The notes under the pieces are model-generated. The model was not told the DNA's origin, did no database searches, and saw nothing but the letters and a program-made list of their open reading frames with translations. Position numbers and translations under genes: made by a program. Source: Eledone cirrhosa (Eukaryota). Taken from it: a DNA stretch of 64,000 bases. The stretch covers positions 20,956,001 to 21,020,000 of the forward strand of contig OZ024759.1 of the NCBI GenBank assembly GCA_964016885.1. The letters are read 5' to 3'. Below are positions 15,649 through 16,064 of the stretch, one piece after another; the first letter of the stretch is position 1; the number at the start of each line of letters is the position of its first letter.

Positions 15649-16061
15649 GAAAGATTTGAATGGATACAGTTTAGTTGAAAGGAATTTATTGACACGTGTT
15701 TCTATAACAGTTACATAACCTGAAAACAGCTGCTATCTACAAAGTTTTAGTTATGCAGACATTCAATATTTCAATGTTATTATTTACTGTCATTTCATCA
15801 GATGAAATGACAGTAAATAATAACATTGAAATATTGAATGTCTGCATAACTAAAACTTTGTAGATAGCAGCTGTTTTCAGGTTATGTAACTGTTATAGAA
15901 ACACGTGTCAATAAATTCCTTTCAACTAAACTGTATCCATTCAAATCTTTCTATTTTTCTCCGGATTACTTTTGGAACTACAACTGGAACCGTCGAGCAA
16001 ACTCTACGTGAGCTGATAATCTACTGTGTGTAATATTTATATTACAACACAACGGAAAATA

Positions 16062-16064
<3 letters not shown>
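15649..16064 (+). mobile_element. Perfect 303-bp palindrome (15649-15951) plus 113-bp tail in (TA)n, carrying a 5'-truncated hammerhead
   Basis: Arms are exact reverse complements about base 15800. The minus arm reads CTGATGA-AATGACAG...CTGTTATA-GAAAC-ACGT-GTC. (TA)n lies on both sides. Confidence 0.85.

Follow-up and report, generated by a model that had tools for sequence, protein, structure and literature searches.

The palindrome at positions 15646 to 16064 of the window (the 64,000-nucleotide stretch of Eledone cirrhosa DNA that was analyzed) is an insertion of two head-to-head arms, each derived from the hammerhead-bearing end of a young Penelope-like element 3.5 kb in length. As an object it is ordinary, the head-to-head arrangement having already been published. 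The explanation that we favor for its center, at a probability of roughly 0.6, is run-off of two target-primed cDNAs at a single RNA 5' end, which is probably where transcription starts, followed by joining through 2-nt microhomology.

The palindrome and its parent element

Positions along the element are given as q, with q1 at G15801, such that CTGATGA occupies q-1 to q5. The perfect arms about a single base described in the first-pass annotation were confirmed, as 15646-15799 and 15801-15954 are 100% complementary about A15800. The full arm length is 154 bp; the outermost 3 bp are common to the (TA)n flank, and thus the 151 bp given earlier is the unambiguous arm length. CTGATGA is read on the minus strand from 15801 and the plus-strand arm begins GATGA, again as annotated. 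In the window copy the tail-less arm extends to q-2 and the tailed arm to q1, with a 2-nt overlap. The features are as follows.

15626..15648, no strand: (TA)n target, left side (sequence)
15646..15799, minus: left arm, inverted copy of the element end; outer end at the fixed terminus q154, inward reach to q-2, across the center
15795..15801, minus: hammerhead box CTGATGA, complete on the left arm; the right arm has GATGA only (15801-15805)
15800..15801, no strand: inversion junction; A15800 unpaired, 2-nt microhomology overlap between the arms
15801..16064, plus: right arm, the element end running from q1 to the second fixed terminus (about q262-264), by comparison with the best matches
15807..15896, plus: stem II (15807-15814 with 15889-15896) and its 74-nt insertion; predicted fold, a single long imperfect hairpin
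15813..15880, plus: candidate GT-AG intron, 68 nt, within stem II, by reading of the sequence
15898..15917, plus: GAAA box, 2-pair stem III with self-complementary ACACGTGT, and stem I 3' strand; mirror on the left arm at 15683-15702
15910..15917, plus: stem I, 3' strand; predicted cut directly after C15909
15955..16064, plus: "tail" of about 110 bp between the two termini, on one arm only, from the best matches and the published layout
16065..16122, no strand: (TA)n target, right side (sequence)

Across the same (TA)n tract lies a different hammerhead-like end (16123-16260), with its box at 16237 on the minus strand and a short GC-rich stem II.

In the 3.0-Gb host genome the right arm matches many sites at 98 to 100% (40 of 242 candidates were scored). 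The element has termini at q154 and about q262, each at a TA of its own sequence. The (TA)n was reached at the tail terminus in 29 of the 30 best matches, the other (L023) instead running on into an open reading frame (ORF), and 1,487 exact ends in which the q154 terminus is followed by TATA were counted genome-wide. Other outer ends were observed at times, at q356, at q462, and beyond q698 in a few two-arm copies (L158/159, L172/173, and the L207 set: L213 and L236/237).

A single ORF with reverse transcriptase motifs was read by eye in L062, L064, and L137, the frame being broken twice in L137; its first ATG is near q319. Look-alikes of the ORF were found in the Atlas at 0.93 to 0.98, with RVT_1 on 16 to 48% of the members of some clusters. 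Pfam scans with three pieces of the ORF returned nothing at the cutoff, and a solved-structure search with the ORF found none. At the C terminus, a GIY-YIG-like motif (IIYKC...YYVGST) and a CxxC with flanking histidines were recognized by eye, without a Pfam hit. A three-part cysteine motif, likewise read by eye, stands directly before the GIY-YIG-like motif, as PMC8557442 describes for the Neptune and Nematis clades (here and below, papers are cited for the sections drawn on). L137 holds a partial tandem (pseudo-LTR) comprising a repeat from q-116, the ORF, and a second repeat ending at q154, with a period of 3545 bp, and 150 repeat-to-ORF junctions were found genome-wide. Two other identities were ruled out: a non-LTR retrozyme, as the parent is a 3.5-kb coding element and the window copy is not tandem, and a MITE-like foldback DNA transposon, by the unequal ends (q154 and q262) together with the variable inner junctions.

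Hammerhead core and promoter-like motif

The core boxes CUGANGA, GAAA, and UH are in the correct order, complete in longer copies only, and the helices (helix I of 5 [+3] pairs, helix II of 8, and a palindromic helix III of 2) resemble those of a minimal type I hammerhead. An insertion in stem II before GAAAC-ACGT-GTC (15898-15909) had been put at about 75 nt; 74 nt are enclosed, by 8 pairs of which one is G-U. The 5' strand of stem I, noted earlier as lacking, is indeed missing from both window arms and is present in longer copies, where stem I forms 5 pairs and then 3 more past a one-base bulge. Its complement had been expected upstream of the core, and TATTATT, near to that prediction, precedes the core in 28 of the 29 other best matches, the exception (L024) having TATTATT with one substitution. 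A scan of the whole window against Rfam gave no match at the gathering score, and thus the hammerhead call rests on the core motifs and pairings. For the GAAAC..AATAAA motif, 2 occurrences were counted in the window where 0.03 would be expected. The G10.1-C11.1 pair is absent, one A being present on each side between the core and helix II. Only helix II appears in the minimum-energy fold (z = -1.4), and the helix III dimer was computed at -10.3 kcal/mol.

The candidate intron is located at q13-80, its 68-nt GT-AG stretch beginning twelve bases after q1, and its excision is predicted to leave a 9-pair stem II with a 4-nt loop. No evidence of splicing was obtained among the fetched loci, where all 308 arms were unspliced. 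Penelope-like elements usually retain their introns.

Using motif consensus sequences from general knowledge, a TATA-like box was identified at -35, 31 nt before the A (-4) of an initiator-like motif. By the same consensus these form the sole TATA/initiator pair at 27- to 34-nt spacing between q-300 and q262, and the pair is unchanged in 188 of 202 arms. A further TATA-like box is at -162. Elsewhere in the window, two related hammerhead-like ends at 29888 and 54569 (minus) have a TATA-like motif 20 to 30 bases before the box and might repeat a promoter-at-core layout in another family.

Several other hammerhead-like and inverted repeats are present in the window. A retrozyme-like, hammerhead-bearing tandem repeat of 310 bp at 19658-21698 is arranged head-to-head, with 886-bp perfect arms (19921-20806 and 20813-21698) and cores at 19810, 20120, 20430, and 20740 on the minus strand and at 20879, 21189, and 21499 on the plus strand; its inversion center is about 67 bases before the core, not at the core. 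The head-to-head pair at 45244-46325 has 507-bp perfect arms 68 nt apart, with CTGATGA at 45374 (minus) and 46195 (plus), a center about 410 bases before the box, and an inner 106 bp that recur at 46343-46448. An older inverted pair (62092-62393; 95 nt, 83%) carries hammerhead-like boxes at 62139 (minus) and 62346 (plus), and a retrozyme-like 102-bp tandem repeat on the minus strand (55100-55912) consists of about eight units, each with CTGATGA...GAAA. Three short related inverted repeats with a GC-rich arm (777-865, 19411-19527, and 56733-56826) are possibly a small foldback family, those at 777 and 19411 having identical arm sequence.

Inversion points and the edge at q-4

An unbiased sample was formed from the first 100 listed q154 ends, all on C1, leaving 99 after removal of L100, a duplicate of L099. 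Flanks of 1.5 kb were fetched for 30 and of 5.5 kb for 70, and 8 of the 99 copies are cut off by the fetched length. Fifty-four of the 99 copies are two-armed, and their inner ends are scattered over the whole 3.5-kb monomer; thus, most inversions are unrelated to the core. The link between inversion and catalytic core drawn in the first-pass annotation holds in part: only L071, 1 of the 54 two-arm copies, has both arms within -7 to +7, and yet centers at the core are recurrent, being found at 26 distinct loci. These were identified by a genome-wide search for palindromes in which a 14-nt anchor was required to be followed by its own reverse complement within 30 bases, with four control anchors of equal design. 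The core anchor gave 27 matches, or 26 loci once L143, a gap-side duplicate of L142, was dropped. The controls, whose coverage leaves aside palindromes centered near -45, gave 6 (q35), 1 (q-16), 10 (q122), and 0 (q-79) (27 versus 10, p = 0.004).

All 27 core loci were fetched, and the 22 that were mapped have one arm per terminus (the short arm of L152 ends near q161, and L143 is cut by a gap). The flanks compared for 15 core loci all differ, the duplicate pair aside. The window junction itself is present at 7 loci, 4 with one mirror form and 3 with the other, and in several subfamily types, from which it follows that it arose repeatedly. Across the 26 core loci, 18 junctions have microhomology of 1 to 3 nt, 1 is blunt, and 7 have inserts. 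The longer arm can be either one (9, 14, and 3 equal among the 26 core loci; 31, 20, and 3 equal among the 54 unbiased copies). The two arms had the same subfamily type in 19 of the 21 core palindromes that could be scored and in all 23 unbiased pairs (expected, 0.48); alternatively to a common source, this agreement could derive from subfamilies active at different times. L147 (G000:C2:127229290-127232324) combines the window's junction with arms that differ in subfamily type, a mixture suggestive of two RNAs reverse-transcribed at a single site. No published map of inversion points, or of run-off at an RNA start, was found for Penelope-like elements in open-access main texts; the supplements, above all those of PMC11167929 and PMC8557442, may hold junction data. 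The sections drawn on of a retrozyme preprint (10.64898/2026.07.22.740005) contain nothing bearing on inversion points versus RNA start.

It is very improbable that the core loci reflect chance, the clonal spread of one palindromic unit, or an assembly artifact. Long-read assemblies can produce perfect palindromes, one junction is common to 7 loci, and the L142/L143 duplicate is beside a gap. However, the core count exceeds those of all four control anchors, and the 7 loci with the same junction comprise two mirror forms with differing subfamily types and different flanks. Contigs from run X4, which is another sample, also include a junction, outside the 27, at which both arms stop at -4; this is weak evidence against an artifact, given that it consists of 2 records with a short loose end and could itself be a library artifact. 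Contigs of four runs, compared with L155, gave neither a joint nor a piling of ends, features that contigs are unable to reveal.

A snap-back intermediate, which the first-pass annotation had offered as one origin of the inversion, fits poorly. One cDNA, or an antisense template, would fold at the small TC-T-GA symmetry of the core and prime its own mirror arm. The outer ends of the arms, however, are at two distinct fixed termini, both abutting (TA)n. It is the tail-less arm that extends farther inward, in the window as in 8 more core loci, so that this arm can be neither a copy of the tailed arm nor the source of the tail. A one-base loop cannot form, and many different junctions (overlaps of 0 to 3 nt, or inserts) share one edge. 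The common subfamily type of the two arms is in keeping with self-priming, as are near-symmetric junctions elsewhere (6 of 54 within 15 nt, two inside a simple-repeat tract not being counted), and PMC3846280 proposed self-priming on an antisense template for palindromes at rotifer inverted junctions. On balance, this route is considered improbable.

The distribution of inner ends at the core loci has a sharp upstream edge. The 52 arm ends of the 26 loci lie at -7 (1), -4 (13), -3 (6), -2 (8), -1 (1), 0 (6), +1 (8), +2 (6), and +4 (3). Thus 1 of 52 arms passes A(-4), where uniform ends would place half beyond, and in 25 of the 26 loci neither arm extends beyond -4 (null, 16%). Single arms joined to (TA)n behave similarly: of the 41 loci listed in the first 100 rows (of 227; hand count), 22 end between -5 and +2, 11 end between -26 and -6, and 8 match the anchor only (p = 3e-6). 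A one-arm search for ends at -4, limited to junctions with no T in the two bases before them, recovered 16 arms from 15 loci. The partners of these arms span q230 to q-4 and lie downstream of -4 in 11 of 11 two-arm loci (that of L198 being a short broken piece, read by eye), compared with 19 of 54 right arms in the unbiased sample (p = 6e-5), two rows of that sample having been reassigned by hand to the correct repeat copy. The shared limit points to a template ending at -4, as independent stalls on a long template predict no such limit.

The edge is not absolute. A control search at -7 gave 8 matches: 1 intact variant (L203, dropped), 2 arms of one palindrome that passes -4, 1 ambiguous arm, and 4 other truncations. 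Both arms of that palindrome (C1:330422776) reach -7, and its spacer, longer than 30, kept it out of the core search. Another cluster of left-arm ends (6 of 99) is found at -41 to -45, upstream of the TATA box, where a C-rich tract follows immediately; since 2 of 5 partners there run far upstream, this pile resembles a pause and not a shared end. In addition, the A/T-rich sequence at -5/-4 offers microhomology to (TA)n, which counts against reading the edge as an RNA end.

A G precedes A(-4) in 8 of 16 arms, compared with 0 of 7 in the -7 control after the intact variant was dropped (p about 0.03). For 3 of the 8 the extra G has no other explanation, and the other 5 are explicable by the partner arm or by a templated insert. 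An extra G is a mark of capping in L1 insertions (PMC11702581). From these sequence features, the q-4 edge likely marks the 5' end of the element's RNA, that is, its transcription start.

A second way to place the edge is by the ribozyme fold or a bound protein, which would either make reverse transcriptase stall when it reaches the core of a continuous template or block a 5'-to-3' exonuclease so that decay products start just before the core. The hot spot does fall on the catalytic box, and 55 of the 56 long copies reaching the site go past it, as a leaky pause would allow. Short arms stop there more often (6 of 84 at -9 to +10), the difference not being significant (p = 0.09, with 8 of 85 counted by eye), and the exonuclease variant also accounts for the shared edge. 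Against a stall, the pairings imply that reverse transcriptase starting at q154 would meet the 3' strands of stems I and II first, leaving the 5' strands already unpaired by the time it arrives at the core. Independent pauses also leave the 11 of 11 short partners unexplained, and the edge coincides with the TATA/initiator pair and the excess of G. This alternative is regarded as unlikely, although less so than self-priming. The earlier proposal that ribozyme structure dictates where the inversion forms is thus sustained in that both arms stop recurrently at the core; the hard shared edge at a TATA/initiator-like site fits an RNA 5' end better than a structure-induced stall, and this is our best reading of q-4.

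Trimming at the DNA level, in which longer inverted insertions would later lose their center through cruciform resolution, deletion, or the element's own endonuclease acting near the core, is about as improbable as self-priming. In its favor are the known instability of long perfect palindromes and the ATT that starts at the edge base. Against it, the same pile is formed by single-arm copies, where an inverted partner is lacking, and the partners of -4 arms range from q230 to q-4 and never beyond, a pattern not expected from symmetric deletion. The anole enzyme prefers ATT (PMC11167929), yet ATT is present many times in the repeat.

Under the favored explanation, run-off from an RNA 5' end, the enzyme would nick both strands of a (TA)n target, and each 3' end would prime reverse transcription at q154 or q262 of one RNA, or one kind of RNA. 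As priming would take place near the RNA 5' end, both cDNAs would run off after 160 to 270 nt. The cDNA ends would then lose 0 to 8 bases and anneal by 1 to 3 nt, the window junction being 2 nt. The palindrome would be centered on the catalytic box because the predicted start falls three bases ahead of CUGAUGA, within the stem I 5' strand. The 5' copy of the ribozyme would likely be disabled, since an RNA from q-4 would carry only 3 stem I pairs at its 5' end.

Long copies and comparison with known systems

Long copies count against this reading. Among the 90 examined that cross the repeat-to-ORF junction (of 150 genome-wide), 34 end at 42 to 241 and 55 farther upstream; when full-length copies were tested for an end at q-4, only 1 of the 90 was found to end between -7 and +5. 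A full-length mRNA starting at -4 would predict many ends there, and thus long copies need another template. This may be tandem read-through, a circle, or efficient strand transfer between repeats, a circular template having been proposed in PMC4209133. Alternatively, the RNA starting at -4 may be a separate short species made from many truncated copies that retain the promoter. In the long copies (L153-L182 and L207-L266), ends are about threefold denser in q42-241 (34 of 90) than in q-300 to q-8 (15 of 90), as if the enzyme had met an obstacle on re-entering the repeat.

A weaker pile of genomic arm ends is found at q110, the hammerhead cut site predicted from the sequence. Eight of the 10 q122-anchor palindromes were fetched, the other two being the L275 junction repeated on small contigs; 5 of the 8 carry an arm that stops at q110 or 111, and a single one of the 16 arms extends beyond the cut. 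Among loci joined near (TA)n, 11 of 43 listed end at 110-111 and 12 at 92-109, five of these at TATA microhomology (hand count over 100 of 114 rows). Microhomology to the target may explain part of the pile at q110-111.

Head-to-head palindromes, tails, and hammerheads are all known in Penelope-like elements (PMC8557442, PMC3846280, and PMC4209133). Endonuclease-bearing members (PMC8557442 and PMC3846280) resemble the element described here in having a reverse transcriptase with a C-terminal GIY-YIG-like domain (a putative one here), partial tandems, a head-to-head inverted copy, a tail on one arm, and microsatellite targets; their tail is 30 to 40 bp, whereas that found here is about 110 bp. 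The self-priming on an antisense template by which PMC3846280 explains junction palindromes differs from the reading adopted here.

A biochemical parallel is the Poseidon element of Anolis (PAc), which in vitro has two internal start sites and extends both target strands (PMC11167929). The present element would share with it two start sites bounding the tail and cutting of both strands, and it has in common an AT-rich target, a hammerhead in the repeat, and AC-rich sequence near the outer terminus. In PAc the start sites are adjacent and inside the ORF, whereas here the putative sites are about 110 nt apart and before the first ATG. In the sections of PMC11167929 drawn on, no RNA reads ended at the ribozyme cut, whereas here genomic ends pile weakly at the predicted cut.

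With the minimal type I hammerheads (PMC4209133) the core shares a helix II of 7 to 8 pairs with an extra base before it, a helix I of 4 to 5 pairs, and a tiny palindromic helix III suited to dimers; it differs in the 74-nt intron-like insertion in helix II, the lack of a G10.1-C11.1 pair, and the abutting cores. Pairs of motifs on opposite strands 100 to 700 bp apart were noted there in metazoan Penelope-like elements. Penelope of Drosophila virilis (PMC2377424) resembles the layout predicted here: transcription begins inside the repeat, and a short exon precedes a 75-nt intron, after which comes the ribozyme. Its promoter, however, is TATA-less, with the start 46 nt before the intron, whereas the TATA/initiator pair here predicts a start inside helix I, and its intron ends at helix I (PMC4209133), the candidate here being inside helix II. 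L1 twin priming (PMC11702581) is similar in its two target-primed cDNAs, microhomology joining, and extra G at cap-reaching ends, yet its arms represent adjacent, nonoverlapping parts of the RNA and form no palindrome, whereas here both arms copy the same part.

A broader proposal is put forward tentatively. Short Penelope-like palindromes may be fossil "strong-stop" products, in which one capped RNA would be copied to its end by two reverse transcriptases, each starting from one of two fixed sites in the 5' repeat of that RNA. The genome would thereby record both the start (q-4, inside helix I, disabling the 5' ribozyme) and the in vivo hammerhead cut (q110), with long copies coming from a seamless, possibly circular, template. 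As the family is young and has more than 1,400 near-identical ends, predictions can be made at base level: RNA ends at q-4 (capped) and q110 (cut), reverse transcription beginning at q154 and q262, and removal of q13-80 as an intron. In the sections drawn on of PMC2377424, PMC3846280, PMC8557442, and PMC11167929, how head-to-head repeats are made and pseudo-LTRs regenerated is an open question, and in vivo hammerhead cleavage of Penelope-like elements has little support. If the strong-stop reading is true, head-to-head repeats would no longer be attributed to antisense self-priming, and there would be genomic evidence that the weak ribozymes of Penelope-like elements cut in the germ line.
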